From positions 640,001 through 704,000 of the forward strand of contig CAWFAK010000005.1 in the NCBI GenBank assembly GCA_963813715.1: a stretch of 64,000 nucleotides of DNA, read 5' to 3'. The first letter of the stretch is position 1, and each line of letters starts with the position of its first letter. The position numbers and the translations under genes are program-made. The notes beneath the pieces were generated by a model that saw only the letters and a list, made by a program, of their open reading frames with translations, was not told where the DNA came from and did no database searches. Shown here piece after piece: positions 1,191-20,790 of the stretch. This DNA comes from an uncultured Planctomycetaceae bacterium. GTDB taxonomy: Bacteria > Planctomycetota > Planctomycetia > Planctomycetales > Planctomycetaceae.

Positions 1191-1600
1191 TCGATTCGGG
1201 ACGGGCTACCGGTCAGTTTTCGATCCAGGCGAGTTGAAGTCCGGTCCGGACACATTCTCAGAGGGACAGGATTGGGGGACGGGACTGGGACGGGACCGGA
1301 TCGGAATGGGAGGGGCGGGACGCGGGACGGGACACGTTGTTTCATCGAGAGAATCCCGGCGAATTTGCCCTCGACCGGCTCGGTCCGGACACGCGAGCGG
1401 GGGACGGGACCAGTCAAAAAAGGTCCGGTCCGGACACATTCCGTCACAGCCAAACGGACCAGACCGGGAACATTTTCACCACAAAGGCACCAAGGCACAA
1501 AGAAATCCGACTTGCTGGGTAATGTTTGCTTTGTGTGTGACCTCCGGCGGGACGAATTGAAGTTGGGACGGGACACAAACACCGGGACGGGACTGATTTC
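1191..1600 (+). repeat. Cluster of CGGGACGGGAC / GTCCGGTCCGGACAC motifs
   Basis: About ten same-strand copies. GCGGGACGGGACACGTTGTTTCA recurs near 2995 (one mismatch), 3137 and 33588. No credible ORF. Confidence 0.75.
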
Positions 1601-4126: not shown

Positions 4127-5146
4127 TTAAGTCGGTTGCTGGCTGAGCGAGTAGGGTTGGCCCGTCTTCAAGATCGCTGTCATCAGGCACAACAACCGGC
4201 GGGCCACGGCGACGATCGCCTTCTTGGCACGCACGCGCAACTTCAATCGTTCATAAATCCGACGCCAACGTAACGAGTGCTGAACCAGCCGCCAGGCGGC
4301 TTCGACCAGCGTCGAGCGCAGCAGCGTCGAACCGTTCTTCTCCAGGTGCAGCTCCCGACTCTTGCCCGCACTCTCGCGTTGACCCGGTGAGAGCCCTGCG
4401 TAAGCGACGACCCGCTTTTGCGAACCGAAGCGATCAATGTCTGCCAACTCGGCCAGCACAACTTCGGTGGTCACGAAGCCCACTCCGGGGATCGTCCGCA
4501 ACAGCGTCCGCGCTTCCTGCTCGCAAAGCGGCGCCGCCTCGGCGAACTCCTTCAGCCGGGCGTTGACGGCCAGCAGCTGACGCCTCCCGAAGTGCAACTC
4601 TTCGACCATTTGATCCACGGCGAACCGATCCGCTCCCAAGAGAGGCACTTGGGCGAGATACGCCAACCCGTCCACGGTGAACAGACTGGGACGATCCGCG
4701 TTGTAGTCGCAGAGAATGCGGCGCAGACGGTTCTTGACGGAGGTCAATCGCCGTTGAACGCCGCCCCGCTGACGCACCAGTCGTCGATGCTCATGCTGCC
4801 GCGGAGTCGCCCGGTAAGACGTCGGAATCATGTCCAAGGCCAGGAACTCCGCGAGGATTTGCGCGTCGAGCCGATCGCTTTTACGCGTGCTCTCGGCAAT
4901 CACACGCAGCTTCTTGGGGTGGGCCAACAACACGCGATGGGCCACGGGCTCGATCAATCGCACGAACCATTCGTAGCTGGCGGTCGCTTCCACGACAGCC
5001 TCGAACTCCCCGAGCCTCTCGAAAAATGCGAGGATGCTCCGCTCTTCGCCACAACGCACGGTCCGACGCTCCAAGACCCGCCGCAATTGGTCGACGACGC
5101 AAATCGTGATAGTCTGCTTGTGTAGGTCGCAGCCGGCAAATTTCAT
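4127..5146 (-). CDS. IS110-family DEDD recombinase/transposase
   Basis: GCDLHK, VEATA and KSDRLDA (DEDD RuvC fold); TIPGVG, YAGLSP..RESAG (catalytic Ser), AIVAVARRL. AAGGA RBS. Confidence 0.95.
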   Translation of the reverse strand: MKFAGCDLHKQTITICVVDQLRRVLERRTVRCGEERSILAFFERLGEFEAVVEATASYEWFVRLIEPVAHRVLLAHPKKLRVIAESTRKSDRLDAQILAEFLALDMIPTSYRATPRQHEHRRLVRQRGGVQRRLTSVKNRLRRILCDYNADRPSLFTVDGLAYLAQVPLLGADRFAVDQMVEELHFGRRQLLAVNARLKEFAEAAPLCEQEARTLLRTIPGVGFVTTEVVLAELADIDRFGSQKRVVAYAGLSPGQRESAGKSRELHLEKNGSTLLRSTLVEAAWRLVQHSLRWRRIYERLKLRVRAKKAIVAVARRLLCLMTAILKTGQPYSLSQQPT

Positions 5147-14659: not shown

Positions 14660-14859
14660 GGATAAAACCGCGCCTGGCAGCGCGGCAGATCATTCTAGGG
14701 AGCGCCTGCGCGGGCGATTCAAGAGCCGGCGCTCGCACAAGCATCCTTTCGCTTGCTCAGCACGGCCCCTATGCTAAGGATTCGCCGTTCACGTGCCGAT
14801 GAGCGGCCGAATGCAACGCCTTGCGGACGTTGCCCGTCTCTCCCCTCGAGCCCGTTCCC

Positions 14860-16225
14860 GTGCTGAAATTCGCGATTCGCAACCTGATGACGCGGCCCAT
14901 GCGCAGCGTGTTGTCGCTGGTGGGGCTCACCGTGGCCATCATGGGGATGATCGGACTCTTTTCAGTCGCCAAGGGACTGGACGAGATGGTCGGCAAGACC
15001 TTCGGCCAGATCGAGGGGCTGGTGGCCATGCAGCCCGGGGCCCCGATCCCGATTTTTTCGCGACTGCCCGCGTCTTGGGGCCCGGAGATTGCCAAGGTCC
15101 CCGGCGTGAAACTGGTCAGCCCGGAAGTTTGGGTGCGGGCCAACGTCATCGACGGCAAGATGATCATCAGCCCGCCCCGCTTTTTGTTCGGAATTGAAAT
15201 TCCCACGCGACTGCAACTGAAAAACCGCGTCTATCGCAAGGACATGATCTCCGGCCGCTATCTCACGGAGGCGGACAAGGGAACGCTCAACACGGTCGTC
15301 AGCAAGTCGATTGCCGACGAGTTTCACAAAACGATCGGCGACACGCTGAACGTCGCCGGCAGTGATCTCAAGATTGTCGGAATTTACAATTGCGGGTCGC
15401 TGTTGTTGGATATCGCACTCATCGTCGATATCGACGAAGTCCGCAAGATCACTCGGTTCGGCAACGACTCGGTCTGCGCGTTCTACATCGAACAAACGGG
15501 CGACGTTCCCGATAGCGAGCTGGCGCCGCGGATTCAGCAAGTTTTCAAAGGGCGGGAAGTCGAAGCCTGGCAGCCCTCGACCAGCCGCGAACCGTTGGAA
15601 AGCGGCAACATGCTGTTCGACCTGTTCGTGCGACTGCTTTCGCGAGTGACGCTGCCGACCGCCGCTCTGGGGAATGCCTCGCTGGGTTCCGGCGACGGTC
15701 ACGCGGCCGGCAAGTCGGGTGACGCAGCGGCAGCCCGCACGACCGCGTCAATCAAAGGGAGTCCACCGTTGTTGCCGGTGGAAGTTCGCAGTCCCACCGA
15801 CTGGGCGAGTCGCTTCCAGGACTTCAGCGCGGACCTCGATTTGTTTCTGGCGATCATGAGCGGGATCGGCGTGACGATTGCCGTCTTGAGCATCGTCAAC
15901 ACGATGCTGATGAGCGTCACCGAACGGATCATCGAGTTCGGCATCCTCAAGGCCAACGGCTGGTCCCGCTACGACGTGTTGCGGTTGATTACCTCGGAGA
16001 GCGCGGTGCTGGGATTTCTTCGGCGGAATCTTTGGCTGCATCGTCGGTTGGTTGGCGACGCGCGGCATCAATTCGATCTGGCCCGACCGCATCTACCTCG
16101 TGGCCACGCCCGGCCTGCTGTTGTTTGGCCTGGCGTTTAGCACGGTCTTGGGCATCTTCGGCGGTCTCTATCCGGCGGTGTGGGCGATGCGAATGATGCC
16201 CATGGACGCGATTCGCCGCGGGTGA
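14860..16225 (+). CDS. ABC transporter permease, MacB/FtsX family (frameshift near 16020)
   Basis: AIRNL..RPMRS.L; NTMLMSVTERIIEFGILKANG; C-terminal YPA..AMRM.PMDAIR in a shifted frame. Confidence 0.9.
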
Positions 16226-16251: not shown

Positions 16252-16968
16252 TCAGACTGAGACGAGTTCCTTCATTTCGCGGACGGCCCGTTCGAAGCCG
16301 ACCATCACCGCGCGGGCCACGATGCTGTGACCGATGTTGAGTTCGCTGACGCCGGGGATGCGGGCGACTGGAACCACGTTGCGGTAGGTCAGGCCGTGGC
16401 CCATGTGTAGAAGCAGTCCCCGTTCCCGGGCCCAGTGTCCAGCGTCGATGAGCTGCGTCAGTTCGGCCTCTCGATCGGCCGGATTCGTGGCGTCCGCGTA
16501 TCGGCCCGTGTGCAGTTCGACCGCGTGGGCGCCCAGTTGCTCGGCCGCGTCGATCTGGGCCCGATCGGCGTCGATAAACAGGCTCACCTCGATGCCCGCC
16601 TCCAGCAGACGGTCAATGCAGCGAGCGACGCGCTCCCGATTGCCGACGACGTCGAGGCCGCCTTCGGTCGTCACTTCCTCGCGCCGTTCGGGAACGAGAG
16701 TCGCCTGGTCCGGATGCACGTCGATCGCAATCTCGGTGATGCTCGGCTCGGCCGCCATCTCCAGGTTGAGCTTCACCTGCACCGTTTGCTTCATCACGCG
16801 CAGATCGCGGTCTTGAATGTGCCGACGATCCTCGCGGAGGTGCAGTGTGATGCTGTCCGCCCCGGCCAGCTCGGCGAGAGCGGCGGCCCACACCGGGTCG
16901 GGCTCGATCGTCCGGCGGGCCTGTCGGATCGTGGCGACGTGGTCGATATTGACGCCCAGTCGTGGCAT
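16252..16968 (-). CDS. pdxJ: Pyridoxine 5'-phosphate synthase
   Basis: [46 protein letters not shown]. Confidence 0.98.
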
Positions 16969-17148
16969 CGGCTCTCCTCGCTACCTCAAAACTGCTGCCT
17001 GATTCTGCACAGTTTACCCGCCTTTGTGCTTACCCGCCGTTGTGCCCACCTCGACACGCCGGGAGCGCGGCCAGGCTCACGCGACTGGATCGTCCATCGC
17101 AATTTGGCACCTCCCAGCGCATCGCTTGGATGGGCCTGTCCTGCAATG

Positions 17149-17182
17149 CATGGCCACGCAAAGCCATGGGCCATGGCACTCC
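17149..17182 (-). repeat. REP-like hairpin
   Basis: Reverse complement GGAGTGCCATGGCCCATGGCTTTGCGTGGCCA; same GGGTG(C/G)-like head as other REPs here. Confidence 0.5.
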
Positions 17183-17206
17183 ACCGGCCACTTAGGCAGT
17201 AGGCGA

Positions 17207-17290
17207 CGGGGTGACTGGGGTCCATGTGTTAGCCGCGCGCCCAGGTCCACACCGCCGGTCTCCTTGTTCAAATGAAAGTGTCCGGACCGG
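17207..17290. repeat. Partial array unit (right half of the ~205 bp unit)
   Basis: ACCGCCGGTCTCCTTGTTCAAATGAAAGTGTCCGGACCGG (17251-17290) is identical to 18055-18094. Confidence 0.9.
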
Positions 17291-17308
17291 GTAGTGGGGG
17301 CGTTTGAA

Positions 17309-17701
17309 TTACGGTTTTTCGCGATTGGCACGGGAATTTGTGGAGCGAGGGCGCATCGCCTTGTCGACGTTCCAGCCAGAGAGATGGTCTCGGAACTGGC
17401 CTGCATGCTGGTCCCAGATAAGGTCGAAGTGAAGGCGGAGCGCTTCGCCTCGCGCGTCGTCAATCCAGAATTCGACGCGGTTAGTCAGTGTTGAGCCTCC
17501 GGTTTGAGGCCATCCAATCTTCATCGCATCGCAGGACTCGCTAAAAGACATTCCCGTCTTCAGCCGTTGCTCGGCAATGCGGAGAGGGCTTTCGGCAAGT
17601 GGATTGCCACCGATGCTCGCGATGAAGAGCGCCGCGAGGACCATGATACCGAGACATTGGGGAACGGCCTTGATCCAGGCCGTCGGTACTTCGTCGCTCA
17701 T
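17309..17701 (-). CDS. Hypothetical membrane-anchored protein (130 aa), cassette ORF2
   Basis: N-terminal TM helix followed by RLKTGMSFSE, reminiscent of the SmpA/BamE-like I..GM motif (inference). Confidence 0.55.
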   Translation of the reverse strand: MSDEVPTAWIKAVPQCLGIMVLAALFIASIGGNPLAESPLRIAEQRLKTGMSFSESCDAMKIGWPQTGGSTLTNRVEFWIDDARGEALRLHFDLIWDQHAGQFRDHLSGWNVDKAMRPRSTNSRANREKP

Positions 17702-17705
17702 GCCG

Positions 17706-17849
17706 TCATTCCGCGCGACCTTCGTAGTCGAGGATCCCCCGAACCCGATAAGACCCATATTGGGCGTATGATGCGAGCAAAGCGAACGCGAAGGCGAGCA
17801 CTGTGAGCACGACAACCGCAATGAATACGTATCGCTTGCTTCGGCTCAT
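17706..17849 (-). CDS. Small membrane peptide (47 aa, MSRSKRYVFIAVVVLTVLAFAFALLASY...), cassette ORF1, leaderless
   Basis: Translated by hand, as it is below the ORF-track cutoff. TAGAAT at 17856-17861 lies 6 nt before the ATG. Basic N-terminus plus one TM helix. Confidence 0.5.
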   Translation of the reverse strand: MSRSKRYVFIAVVVLTVLAFAFALLASYAQYGSYRVRGILDYEGRAE

Positions 17850-17875
17850 GCCGTCATTCTAGCGGCGGCCACCCC

Positions 17876-18510
17876 CCGGATTCAGACTTCGCCCTAAAAG
17901 CTATCCGCTGCGCCTCTTAGCACCGGTCTAAATCCGAATTGTGAAGATCAGACCGGACCTGACTCGATTGGCAGTGACGCTATCTAAGCCAATCACGCCT
18001 GAGCCAATCAGGGGGGTGGCTGCGTCGAGGGGTCAGGCTCGCCCCCAGGTCACAACCGCCGGTCTCCTTGTTCAAATGAAAGTGTCCGGACCGGATTCAG
18101 ACTTCGTCCTAAACTGCAGCCATTGCACCTCTTAACCCCGGTCTGAATCGGAATTGTGAAGATTAGACCGGACCGGACCTGACTCGACTGGCTGCGACGA
18201 TATCCGGGCCAAGCGGGAGAGTAGCTTGGTCGAGCCGTCAGGCTCGCCCCGCGGTCCCGGACCGCCGGTCCCTGTCTGTAAATGAAAGAGTCCGGACCGG
18301 ATTCAGACTTCGCCCTAAACCGCAGCTGCTGCGACGCTTAACTCCGGTCTAAATCCGAATTGTGAAGAGGAGACCGGACTGGACCTGACTCCGATGTTGT
18401 GCTCGCAGTCGAGCCCAGCTCGGGTGGCTGGGGTCGAGCCGTCAGGCTCGCCCCCAGGTCCGCAACCGCCGGACTCGTTGTTCAAACGAAAGTGTCCGGA
18501 CCGGACCTGA
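17876..18510. repeat. Tandem array of three structured units (17876-18090, 18091-18296, 18297-18500)
   Basis: Each unit starts CCGGATTCAGACTTCGYCCTAAA, contains GTCTRAATCSGAATTGTGAAGA, GGACCTGACTC and GTCAGGCTCGCCCC, and ends AAAYGAAAGWGTCCGGA. Confidence 0.95.
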
Positions 18511-18607
18511 CGTCATCCGGCTACCGACCACGCCGTCGATGCCCATCAATGTTGCGGCCATTTCATCCCCGGCGCAAGCCGATCTCGGCCGTCACGACGG
18601 GGCCAAA

Positions 18608-18731
18608 CTCCATTCTGCCACAAATTGCCAACCAACCAAGATCGGTTTTCTACGCCGCTCAGTTTCTCGGTCGCTCGGCCGGAATGCAGACGGGAGATTT
18701 ACCGGGGGTGCCAGGGTTGAGCTTGCTCGAG
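18608..18731 (-). repeat. REP-headed leader element, copy B
   Basis: Reverse-complement homolog of 967-1107. Confidence 0.8.
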
Positions 18732-18796
18732 CGTGCTCTTAACGGGTTCAGCAACCGTCGTCATCAGGCGGAAGGAGCAAAGGGGCAGACGCACGG

Positions 18797-20790
18797 TCAA
18801 TCGCCGTTCGGGCCGTCGATCACCAGCGTGCAATCTGGCAGGCTCTCGAGGAACTGTCGGCCGTACGGTTTGCTGCGAATCCGCGGATCGAGAATCGCGA
18901 CCTGCCCGGTGTCCGCCTTGCGGCGAATCAGGCGTCCGAAGCCCTGCTTGAGTTTGATCACGGCCTCGGGCACCTGGTATTCGATGAAGGGATTGCCCCC
19001 TCGCTCACGAATCGCCTCCAGCCGCGCCTCGAGCAGCGGATGATCGGGCACGCTGAACGGGAGCTTGGTGATGATCACGTTCTGCAGCGCGTCGCCGGGC
19101 ACGTCGACTCCCTGCCAGAAGCTGTCGGTGCCGAACAACACGCCGGCGGCGTCCTTGCGGAAGCGTTCCAACATCAGCGAATTCGGCAGCCCGTCGGACT
19201 GGCAGTAAAGCGTGTATTGATGCCGGGCGAACCATTGAGCGAGTCGCTCGGCACAGCTCTTGAGCATTTTGTAACTGGTAAACAGCACAAACGCGCGGCC
19301 GTGCGTTTCCGTCACATGGTGTTGGATGCGTTCGCAGACCGCCTGCTCATACTCACGGGGATGGGCGGCCGGGTCGGGCATGCCGTCGGAGAGGATCAAT
19401 CGCGCCTGACGCTTGAAGTCGAACGGGCTGCCGAGCCGGCACTCGTCGGCGGCGCCAGCCCCCAGGCGGTCCTTAATGAAGTCGAAGCTGCGCTTGCCGA
19501 CGGCGAGCGTGGCGCTGGTGAGGATCACCGTCTTCACCCGGTCGAAGAGTTCGCTCTTGAGCACCGGGCCAACTTCGATCGGTGCACAGTGCAGCTCGGT
19601 GCGCGGCCGTTTTCCCTGTCGGACCTCGATCCAGTAGACGCAACCGGGCAACGACTGCTTGAGCCAGGCCGCCAGCGATTGGCCCAGCTCGATACAGCGC
19701 TGGGCGGCGGCCGTCAGCTCGATCGACTGTTCTTCGTTCACGATCTCCTTCGCGGCAGAGTTCATCGTCGCTGCCAGCTCGGTGAGCGCGGGGGTGACTT
19801 TGTTCACGACGTCGAGCGGTTGTCGGAGGCGGCCATTTTCGCTTCCGTGAACCTCGTGCCAGTCGCGGAGATCCTCGAGCAAGTCCCGCACACCGTGGCG
19901 GATGCGGTCGACCAGCCGCTGCGCGTCGAGAGTTTGTGGTGCACCAGCAGGCCGCGCTGCGTGTAGTCGTTGTAGAGCTTGTTGAGCAGGTAATCGAACT
20001 GTCCGCTGGTGAGCGTCAGTCCCATCCGGTCGCCGGCGACCGCTTCGACGGTGTGAGCTTCGTCGAGCACGACGACTTCATAATCGGGCAGCAAGCTCAC
20101 CCCTTCCCGCCGCAACGCCAGGTCAGAGAAGAAGAGGGCGTGATTGACCACCAGGACGTCGGCGTCCCAAATCCGCCGCCGCGCCTGGTAATAGAAGCAG
20201 TCGTTGTACGTGGGGCATTTTTTCCCCAGGCAATTGCCACGATCGCTAGCGACTTCGTCCCAGACGTTGGGGAACGGCCGCAGCGACAAATCGCTGCGCG
20301 TGCCGTCGGTCGTCCGCCGCGACCAGTCGAGGATCGTCTGCAGCTGCTCGAATTCCTGCTCCTGAAAGAAAATCGATTTGGCCCGTTCGACGGCGGCGTT
20401 CATCCGCCGCAGACTGATGTAGTTCCCGCGCCCTTTCGCCAGCACGCACGAGAACTCAACCGGCAGCACTGAACGCAGAAAGGGGATGTCCCGCGTGACG
20501 AGCTGTTCCTGCAGGCTGATCGTGTGGGTCGAAATGACGAGGGGCTTGCGGGGGCGTTCCGTGGTGCCCGTCGGATCGTGTTCCGCGGTGACTGCCAGAA
20601 TGGCCGGGACGAGGTAGGCGAAACTCTTGCCCACGCCAGTTCCCGCTTCGACCAGCAAATGCCTCGACTCCGCGATGGCCCGCTCGACCGCTTCGGCCAT
20701 TTCCAGCTGCTGTGGCCGGTGTTCGTAACTGTCGAGGCGCCGGGCGATTCGGCCGTCACTGCCGAGCACGGAGGTGGCATTGAGCGTCAA
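18797..20790 (-). CDS. dinG: DinG/YoaA-family ATP-dependent DNA helicase (frameshift near 19920)
   Basis: RPQQ Q-motif, EAGTGVGKS, DEAH, LTSATL, LFTSY, QGVDVPG, QGFGRLIRR. Confidence 0.9.

Follow-up and report, generated by a model that had tools for sequence, protein, structure and literature searches.

Among the described systems that resemble the locus reported here are mobile insertion cassettes (MICs), with IS231/MIC231 of Bacillus cereus as an example, and integron cassettes, whose attC sites follow the consensus RYYYAAC ... GTTRRRY (inverse core and core sites). Members of the insertion sequence (IS) family IS1 are marked by direct repeats (DR) of 8-9 bp and by ends of the form GGnnnTG (Table 8 of PMC10425158; excerpts of PMC6807381), and PMC10425158 gives their size as 740-1180 bp. 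MICs, MITEs (transposable elements of miniature size with inverted repeats) and transporter ISs are taken here as defined in excerpts of PMC3129680. ISs that target repetitive extragenic palindromic (REP) sequences form a further group, in which PMC1525189 and PMC2817692 place ISPpu9/ISPpu10, ISPa11, ISPsy8 and ISRm19/22, together with IS1397 in bacterial interspersed mosaic elements (BIMEs). Here we analysed a 64,000-nt stretch of DNA from an uncultured Planctomycetaceae bacterium (the window; positions 640001-704000 of contig C5 in genome G000, 7.49 Mb and 82.6% complete), in which a cassette of two small genes interrupts an array of 206-nt repeat units. The segment at 17290-17875 is probably a non-autonomous, right-end-decayed, passenger-carrying transposon of the IS1 family, inserted at TCCGGACCG. 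Elements of this sort belong to kinds already known, the transporter IS or MIC and the repeat-targeting IS, and do not make up a new class.

The anatomy of the insert is well established. A first-pass annotation, made from the letters alone, had described a two-gene cassette placed at an array junction with CCGG on both sides, and this description holds: a partial 206-nt unit runs to 17290, an insert of about 585 bp follows, and the array goes on with three full units from 17880. Enclosed by the two CCGG, the 585 bp (17291-17875) hold two minus-strand open reading frames (ORFs) and a -10-like box of their own, TAGAAT, just inside the edge; no transposase was found in the window copy, either in the ORF list or by Pfam search. 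The left flank reads ...AAAGTGTCCGGACCGG / ...TTGTTCAAATGAAAGTGTCCGGACCGG with 17290 as its last base, and the array restarts as CCGG-ATTCAGACTTCG at 17876/17880. At the uninterrupted junctions, GTCCGGACCGG is directly followed by ATTCAGAC (18094/18095 and 18300/18301), just as the annotation had read them. Short-read contigs of sequencing run X1, which may be the source sample, span 17773-17951 including the right junction with 0 differences. The features of the locus are as follows.

17207-17290, plus strand: partial 206-nt unit (profile positions 122-206; nhmmer E 1.7e-12), ending in the 13-mer core
17278-17290, plus strand: 13-mer core GTGTCCGGACCGG, the last 13 bases of the partial unit
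17281-17289, plus strand: left copy of the 9-bp target TCCGGACCG, from the sequence
17290-17308, plus strand: left terminal inverted repeat GGTAGTGGGGGCGTTTGAA with a GGnnnTG tip, 0 mismatches to the repeat consensus used
17325-17335, plus strand: sub-terminal module TTGGCACGGGA, conserved and also found upstream of many MSDEPK-type gene starts
17309-17701, minus strand: ORF2, 130 aa, starting MSDEV, with one predicted N-terminal membrane helix; an orphan passenger gene
17696-17711, minus strand: ORF2 start module GAATGACGGC-ATGAGC, an exact 16-nt repeat of the ORF1 module
17706-17849, minus strand: ORF1, 47 aa, the first cassette gene, with a single membrane helix (Kyte-Doolittle 19-residue mean 3.02)
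17844-17868, minus strand: putative promoter and leaderless-start module GCCGCCGCTAGAATGACGGC-ATGAGC, with exact 25-28-nt copies in the congeneric genomes G002, G003, G005 and G011
17869-17879, plus strand: right edge CACCCC + CCGG; a right inverted repeat is missing, and the right target copy is reduced to CCG(G)
17880-18094, 18095-18300 and 18301-18504, plus strand: three full 206-nt units (profile E 1.5e-53 to 4e-59)
18505-18757, plus strand: conserved array tail of about 250 nt, which comes after most arrays of the 206-nt family
17081-18790, no strand: whole block of partial unit, cassette, array and tail, absent from the orthologous pdxJ-helicase spacer of G002

Sister copies of the insert carry the assignment to a transposon. 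A scan of G000 for occupied junctions with the pattern TCCGGACCGG+GTA[AG]TGGGG gave four matches, all of them at unit junctions (the window, C7:437069, C8:493671 on the minus strand and C5:559604 on the minus strand). All four segments that lie behind ...GTCCGGACCG in this genome open with the same end, GGTAGTGGGGNCG, and each occupies the first unit junction of its array in the same orientation. The four loci (the window, C7:437078, C8:493662 and C5:559595, the last two on the minus strand) read ...GTGTCCGGACCG and then GGTAGTGGGG.CG..., and TTGGCACGGGA comes after another 16 nt or so. In C7 and C8 the copies, of 791 bp and 2921 bp, are bounded by GGTAGTGGGGGCGTTT.. and ..CCCCATTACC. They possess inverted terminal repeats (15/19 and 11/19 matches, respectively) with the tips GGTAGTG/GGTAATG, which have the form GGnnnTG, and both are flanked by a perfect 9-bp direct repeat of TCCGGACCG. 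Their right ends run ...GTACCCCATTACC, TCCGGACCG, GATTCAGAC; in detail, ...(T)TTCA(C/A)AGTACCCCATTACC is followed by TCCGGACCG and then GATTCAGAC. Taking out either element together with one copy of the repeat restores an intact unit junction.

The C8 copy also supplies a transposase. Its minus strand carries a 239-aa ORF and two small genes of the MSDEPK type, and an intact 313-aa transposase ORF adjoins the right repeat. The 313-aa protein scored 38.8 bits against Pfam DDE_Tnp_IS1 (cut-off 24.1), and IS1 was its best NCBIfam family (E 3e-16, short of the cut-off). Homologs at E<=1e-10 made up 7386 of the 8000 scored candidates; among the 120 listed, the majority carry PF03400 and have the source name IS1 family transposase. 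Three further copies of the gene, one of them frameshifted, are located on C15. A hairpin and the right repeat lie behind the gene in C8 and C15a and about 1.5 kb beyond it in C15b; they are likewise found behind the gene in two of the three copies examined in G003 and G002. In complete elements a leftward promoter motif, CATTCTAGCGG on the plus strand, stands just upstream of the transposase start, and it is exactly there that the window copy breaks off. The IS1-type transposase would be the enzyme that moves these ends, acting in trans, as the cognate transposase does on MICs, where a copy lacks the gene.

Compared with the IS1 family, C7 and C8 show GGnnnTG at both ends and direct repeats of the expected length, whereas the window copy shows the tip at its left end only and keeps just CCG(G) on the right. 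It is the passengers that take the C8 copy out of the IS1 size range, and within it there may be a shorter IS of about 1.2 kb. The elements here, 2921 bp in C8 and 4 kb on C15, are far longer than the 740-1180 bp given in PMC10425158. Long relatives of IS1 make up the ISMhu11 subgroup of ISfinder, on which a literature search returned no papers. The C7 copy has both ends, the duplication and no transposase, so that it matches the MIC definition as excerpted from PMC3129680. The window copy likewise lacks a transposase and carries passengers, but at 17860-17879 neither a right repeat nor a duplication is present; with its right end lost it no longer answers to the definition of a MIC. As far as the excerpts of PMC3129680 and PMC10425158 go, the elements share with transporter ISs and MICs a DDE transposase of the IS1 Pfam family, GGnnnTG tips, 9-bp direct repeats, passenger genes and transposase-less copies that keep their ends. 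They differ from these known kinds in their passengers, small genes for membrane proteins that bring their own promoters and a conserved module for a leaderless start; in addition, tandem cassettes with only a left repeat occur, and the target is one precise position of a repeat.

A course of events can be proposed from these copies. The canonical element would begin on its left side with the left inverted repeat (GGTAGTGGGGNCGTTTGAA plus TTGGCACGGGA); inward there would be at least one small membrane-protein gene read leftward from the TAGAAT/leaderless-ATG module, then a divergent gene for the IS1-type DDE transposase, the hairpin and the right inverted repeat. The target of such an element would have been the compound palindrome TCCGGACCG, where two 206-nt units meet, and its transposition would have duplicated these 9 bp. 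In the window copy, a stretch from just past the passenger promoter into the right target copy would then have been lost, taking with it the transposase, the right repeat and 6 nt of the duplication, and leaving the left repeat, ORF2, ORF1 and the promoter directly against CCGG and ATTCAGAC. The copy does end 14-18 nt past the TAGAAT module, in GGCCACCCC+CCGG. Deletion would be the simplest account of its present form; having lost the right end, the window copy is probably immobile now. A promoter function of the TAGAAT module, and whatever underlies the preference for this site, we infer.

The first-pass annotation had taken the CCGG pair for a 4-bp recombination core. By itself the pair is uninformative, since CCGG is present in every unit junction, and the true duplicated target, as the sister copies show it, is 9 bp. 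G17290 is common to the left repeat and to the CCGG of that annotation. After a deletion of the right end, CCGG on both sides would be a leftover and not a crossover core; the supposed core is instead best seen as the remnant of the 9-bp duplication TCCGGACCG in a copy missing its right end.

The target belongs to a repeat family that recurs in this genome. A profile was built by aligning 12 full 206-nt units of G000 and was searched against the same genome with nhmmer; its E values rule out chance resemblance for the unit matches in the window. Arrays of 1-3 units were found at about 10 places, and a partial 3' portion of a unit opens every one of them. Besides that of the window, the profile search gave the following arrays.

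C5:557086-559646, array
C7:435018-438071, array
C7:791547-791955, array
C8:490306-493749, array
C12:51016-51458, array
C15:53010-53672, array
C17:329586-330092, array
C17:726458-728655, array
C5:383015-384231, weaker array

When 40 relatives were searched with one 206-nt unit, full units appeared in G002 (same genus) only, and G009 and G010 gave short partial matches. The tail of the window array is 75-79% identical over at least 460 nt to the tails of five other arrays and 82% identical to that of G002:C2, with shorter matches at three more. The 13-mer core GTGTCCGGACCGG, a compound palindrome (GTCCGGAC / CGGACCG), occurs 75 times in G000 against 0.93 expected and is the core of at least four intergenic repeat families, some of them tandem, in G000 and G002.

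Only a subset of these cores is occupied. Cassettes sit at 4 of the 24 unit-junction cores and at none of the 51 other 13-mer copies (hypergeometric p ~0.009, for copies that are not independent). All occupied junctions in G000, in G002 and on two metagenome contigs are the first of their array and hold the insert in one orientation. The first-pass annotation had proposed a check for arrays with different cargo at the same junction, and the cargo does differ between loci. According to the spacer up to TTGGCACGGGA, four left-end types can be told apart, each of which also occurs outside arrays (C15, C5:1499009, G003).

Type A: window, C8, metagenome locus L219
Type B: C5b, metagenome locus L218
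Type C: C7b, G002:C21
Type D: G002:C2

The same cassette type is present in G003, where a search with one unit found no 206-nt units. Gain or loss between species is evident at the G002:C21 array, which is orthologous to C7:791547-791955 (flanks 92.1% identical over 1978 nt and 91.0% over 2351 nt): two cassettes stand at its first junction, and the G000 ortholog (C7:791579) is empty. The orthologous arrays of C5b and G002:C2 are both occupied, with flanks 93-95% identical and with a different left-end type and adjoining gene. Taken together, the types outside arrays, the gain and loss, the occupancy and the placement suggest that one precise site has received insertions or replacements several times.

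The site was also looked for beyond these genomes. The metagenome scan for occupied junctions used a pattern that was too loose, returning at least 121 loci, and only two of the 121 listed (L218 and L219) are real occupied junctions, both on pieces too short for the cargo to be read. A scan of a genome collection with a 17-mer gave 81 loci, mostly single chance matches in unrelated phyla; multiple matches came only from the metagenome-assembled genome (MAG) corresponding to G002 and from one other Planctomycetaceae MAG. The sequencing runs X1, X2, X15 and X18 were available as contigs, from which no transcript starts or strands can be read, and no run contains more than 0.21 of the sequence words. 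Among the run contigs neither an empty-junction allele of the window locus nor a circle junction was seen, although contigs cannot exclude either. For the C8 array, G002 offers no empty-site comparison, since its orthologous site is split between the end of contig C10 and the start of C17.

Several observations weigh against a local transposition. The window copy has neither the right repeat nor the 9-bp duplication, so its own transposition is deduced from the sister copies, and the proposed remnant ACCCC is too short to carry meaning. C7 and C8 share the same target, and identical duplications could stem from one event followed by duplication of the locus. The identities of ends and flanks overlap (left ends 63-88% over 56 nt, partial units 68-76%, first units 74-81%); an exception is the window/C8 pair, in which the left end of the window copy is identical at 47 of 50 nt (94%) to the transposase-bearing C8 copy and the flanks are less alike (partial unit 76%, first unit 75%). 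The C8 protein stayed below the cut-off of the NCBIfam IS1 equivalog, with 59.8 against 100 bits, and IS1 itself is not known to be site-specific. The difference from G002 at the window locus is the entire 1.7-kb block and not the cassette alone, with borders that show no duplication; contigs of runs X2 and X18, which join ~16977 to ~18783-18816, have the same short spacer. Cassettes of this build, each with a single left repeat, one or two small genes and a TAGAAT module, are lined up head to tail on C15 (100-113 kb) and in G003. Ahead of three left repeats on C15 there is a similar stretch of 9 C-rich nt, unlike what independent insertions with random duplications would give. At G002:C21 a cassette lies between direct repeats of about 80 nt, an arrangement that fits unequal crossing-over equally well, and in G002:C3 an ORF1 homolog is followed by the conserved start module GGAATGACGGCATGAGCGA and then by a different second gene. 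Tandem one-ended cassettes, the ~80-nt repeats and swapped genes make it clear that recombination at short conserved modules reshuffles content, and the window copy may owe its place or its present form to such recombination.

Transposition thus has a main rival, or complement, built on these observations: the cassette or its gene content would have arrived by homologous recombination or gene conversion between shared modules, with no transposition at this locus. The missing right repeat and duplication suit it, as do the retained flanks of the C5b/G002:C2 pair beside a changed gene at the left repeat, the exchanged second gene in G002:C3, the ~80-nt repeats around the G002:C21 cassettes, and the fact that the window and C8 copies have only an end of about 50 nt in common and not their genes. 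However, it leaves the arrival of a first cassette at the junction without an explanation, as it does the inverted repeats and perfect 9-bp duplications of C7 and C8, and the conserved modules measure just 25-50 nt. Exchange is thus a complement to transposition and no substitute for it, and as an alternative we consider it unlikely. We judge it rather unlikely, too, that this planctomycete genus has a shuffling system in which IS1-derived, promoter-bearing small-gene cassettes are exchanged at the left IS repeat and the leaderless start modules, pile up in tandem and dock one way at array heads through the 13-mer core. Room for such a system-level reading is left by the core, the arrays with their tail and the tandem one-ended cassettes. 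If it were true, the system would be an analogue of integrons made from a DDE transposon and host repeats, and the arrays would be landing pads or platforms for expression or insulation.

Integron-like capture, the idea favoured by the first-pass annotation, would have an unlinked site-specific recombinase insert circular, self-promoted cassettes at the core in GTCCGGACCGG, in one orientation at the array head. What stood of it is a segment foreign to the repeat at a precise, re-used position: junction, orientation and first place are the same in all four G000 loci and also in G002 and on the two metagenome contigs. Most cassettes lack a transposase, tandem cassette arrays exist on C15 and in G003, each G002:C21 cassette ends in a copy of the core, and compound palindromes like this core are common in recombinase sites. 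The mechanism found no support, since the features that accompany the cassettes are inverted repeats of IS type, a DDE transposase and a duplication of 9 bp. The best match to the integron-integrase model TIGR02249 reached 78.2 bits against a cut-off of 265 in this 82.6%-complete genome, and none of the 11 tyrosine-recombinase matches (Pfam Phage_integrase) lies beside an array, the nearest (C15:30892) being 22 kb off. The C15 and G003 cassette arrays have no core at their junctions, and no circle junction stands out among the joints of the run contigs, which cannot exclude one. The insert was correctly said to lack attC-consensus ends: where GTCCGGACCGG meets ATTCAGAC and where CCGG meets GTAGTGGGG, no GTTRRRY stands at the crossover point, as judged by the consensus. 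Capture by such a recombinase is therefore very unlikely, and the resemblance to integrons is one of outcome (variable small cassettes, one orientation, fixed entry) and not of machinery. Short modules of one or two genes, tandem arrays, a recurrent insertion point and strain-variable cargo are common to both systems, whereas an IntI above cut-off and attC-type ends are wanting here and each cassette has its own promoter, IS ends and a target duplication. Finally, nothing might be mobile, the genes being residents around which units were duplicated or spread in a one-off event. An old cassette with an ORF2 that has no relatives would fit, as would the indel of the whole block against G002. Against this stand five further occupied junctions with other cargo, an empty and an occupied orthologous array, the terminal repeats and duplications, and the same cassette type in a genome without units, and we regard this explanation as barely credible.

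Under the preferred reading of a decayed IS1-family transposon, ORF1 and ORF2 are taken as passenger genes, and the element is seen as a greater factor in their spread than any host pathway they might share. Each encodes one strongly hydrophobic N-terminal helix, and neither gave a Pfam or NCBIfam match above cut-off. For ORF2, whose last 9 codons run into the conserved end module, one relative with 98% identity was found in 5.8 billion proteins, and the best ESM Atlas score (0.81) was uninformative. The ORF1 homolog in G002:C3 has 45 aa; its 6-nt indel keeps the frame and its stop is the same, so that ORF1 is likely to be coding. The exact 16-mer GAATGACGGCATGAGC (repeat family D6) precedes ORF1 and ORF2 alike. 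TAGAAT at 17856-17861 (minus strand) stands 6 nt ahead of the ORF1 ATG at 17849, a spacing that suggests a leaderless first gene. A consensus scan of 16900-18900 returned 0 sigma-70 promoters, and a -35 box is not evident at the ORF1 module. The cassette's own promoter probably still drives expression of both genes, with a leaderless first gene and a closely coupled second. Contigs from RNA libraries cover pieces of the units and the tail, which is not proof of transcription, and parts of the cassette are uncovered in X2, X15 and X18.

Related gene starts are widespread. In G000, 17 other ORFs start MSDEPK, and their first ~30 nt and the upstream GACGGC are conserved at the DNA level. The module GCTAGAATGACGGC-ATGAGCGACGAACCGAAG, which encodes MSDEPK..., heads small membrane-protein genes throughout the genus, with 18 further G000 loci, and the gene bodies behind it differ as though swapped at the module. 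A typical MSDEPK family member has 10 homologs, nine of which are named hypothetical by their source and one of which is unnamed.

Like the REP-targeting ISs, as described in PMC1525189 and PMC2817692, the elements insert repeatedly at a fixed position of an abundant intergenic palindromic repeat, one that is also arranged in tandem composite arrays; the 206-nt units are similar in organisation to BIME-type composite repeats (PMC2817692). They differ from these ISs in their target, the 13-mer core found where 206-nt units join, and in the cargo that is inserted with the element. A literature search on planctomycete repeats and ISs listed no description of these elements. As far as is known, the REP-targeting elements named above belong to families other than IS1. 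In place of an integron-like novelty there is now a testable and mostly conventional proposal, a cargo-carrying IS1-family transposon with a very precise host-repeat target. If confirmed, an IS1-type DDE transposase that strongly favours a 9-bp compound palindrome and one orientation at it could be useful for targeted insertion tools and would be a case study in how DDE enzymes read repeats. Confirmation would also reveal a genus-wide pool of self-promoted leaderless small membrane-protein genes, moved as IS passengers and swapped at short modules, and would make the 13-mer core, common to several abundant repeat families of soil planctomycetes, an evident landmark for mobile DNA.

The units themselves gave few further signals. 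The array, with units that are 72-75% alike, was not picked up by Tandem Repeats Finder, and Rfam at a permissive E<=1 gave 0 matches over 16900-18800. RNAalifold on 20 units (plus strand) yielded -11.96 kcal/mol with 14 pairs and 1 compensatory change, hence no convincing conserved fold; a looser alifold model gave -56 (plus) and -63 (minus), from which no RNA conclusion was drawn. The consensus scan of 16900-18900 reported one weak terminator-like hairpin at the core (minus strand, 18506-18494), not above shuffles. Repeats of the REP/BIME type are imperfect palindromes that abound between genes, form composite arrays and are linked to REP-associated tyrosine transposases (RAYTs, Y1 type). 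No consistent link of this sort was seen for the core: only one of the eight Y1_Tnp matches has a core within 1.5 kb, on one side only. On the minus strand of the tail, TTGGTT-N16-CAGAAT with TG ahead of the -10 is a candidate promoter, from which transcription would cross the units in the direction of the cassette; the consensus promoter scan did not report it.

Some further observations concern the repeats and their surroundings. An IS110-family transposase gene (Pfam DEDD_Tnp_IS110) splits another unit at C7:435604-436993 (locus L012; profile positions 1-131 and 124-206), at a position different from that of the cassette. An IS110-family element thus also interrupts a unit, and two different IS families therefore use the 206-nt repeat. 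Another copy of the IS110-type element lies inside the window at 4703-5137 (minus strand). The 13-mer GTGTCCGGACCGG is found elsewhere in the window at ~1253 and ~1437, both on the minus strand, and C8:291007-291568 is an example of a tandem array of repeats with this core. At L046 (G002:C2), the promoter of the cassette is separated from the array by a tRNA-like T-arm/acceptor fragment (~1440-1470, reverse strand). Contig C15 (131 kb), which may be an island or a plasmid, holds dense tandem cassettes at C15:100000-113100, interleaved with copies of the IS1-type transposase gene, two of them full-length there.

Near the block, two genes are split in the window. A DinG-like helicase is represented by two overlapping ORFs in different frames (18797-19891 and 19804-20790, minus strand), and so is an FtsX-like permease (14821-16140 and 16052-16225, plus strand); either true frameshifts or indel errors of the assembly may account for them. 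A short repeat family at 18681-18779 has at least 15 copies in G000 and several in G002 and G003, and another at 17126-17185 has copies in G005 and G011.

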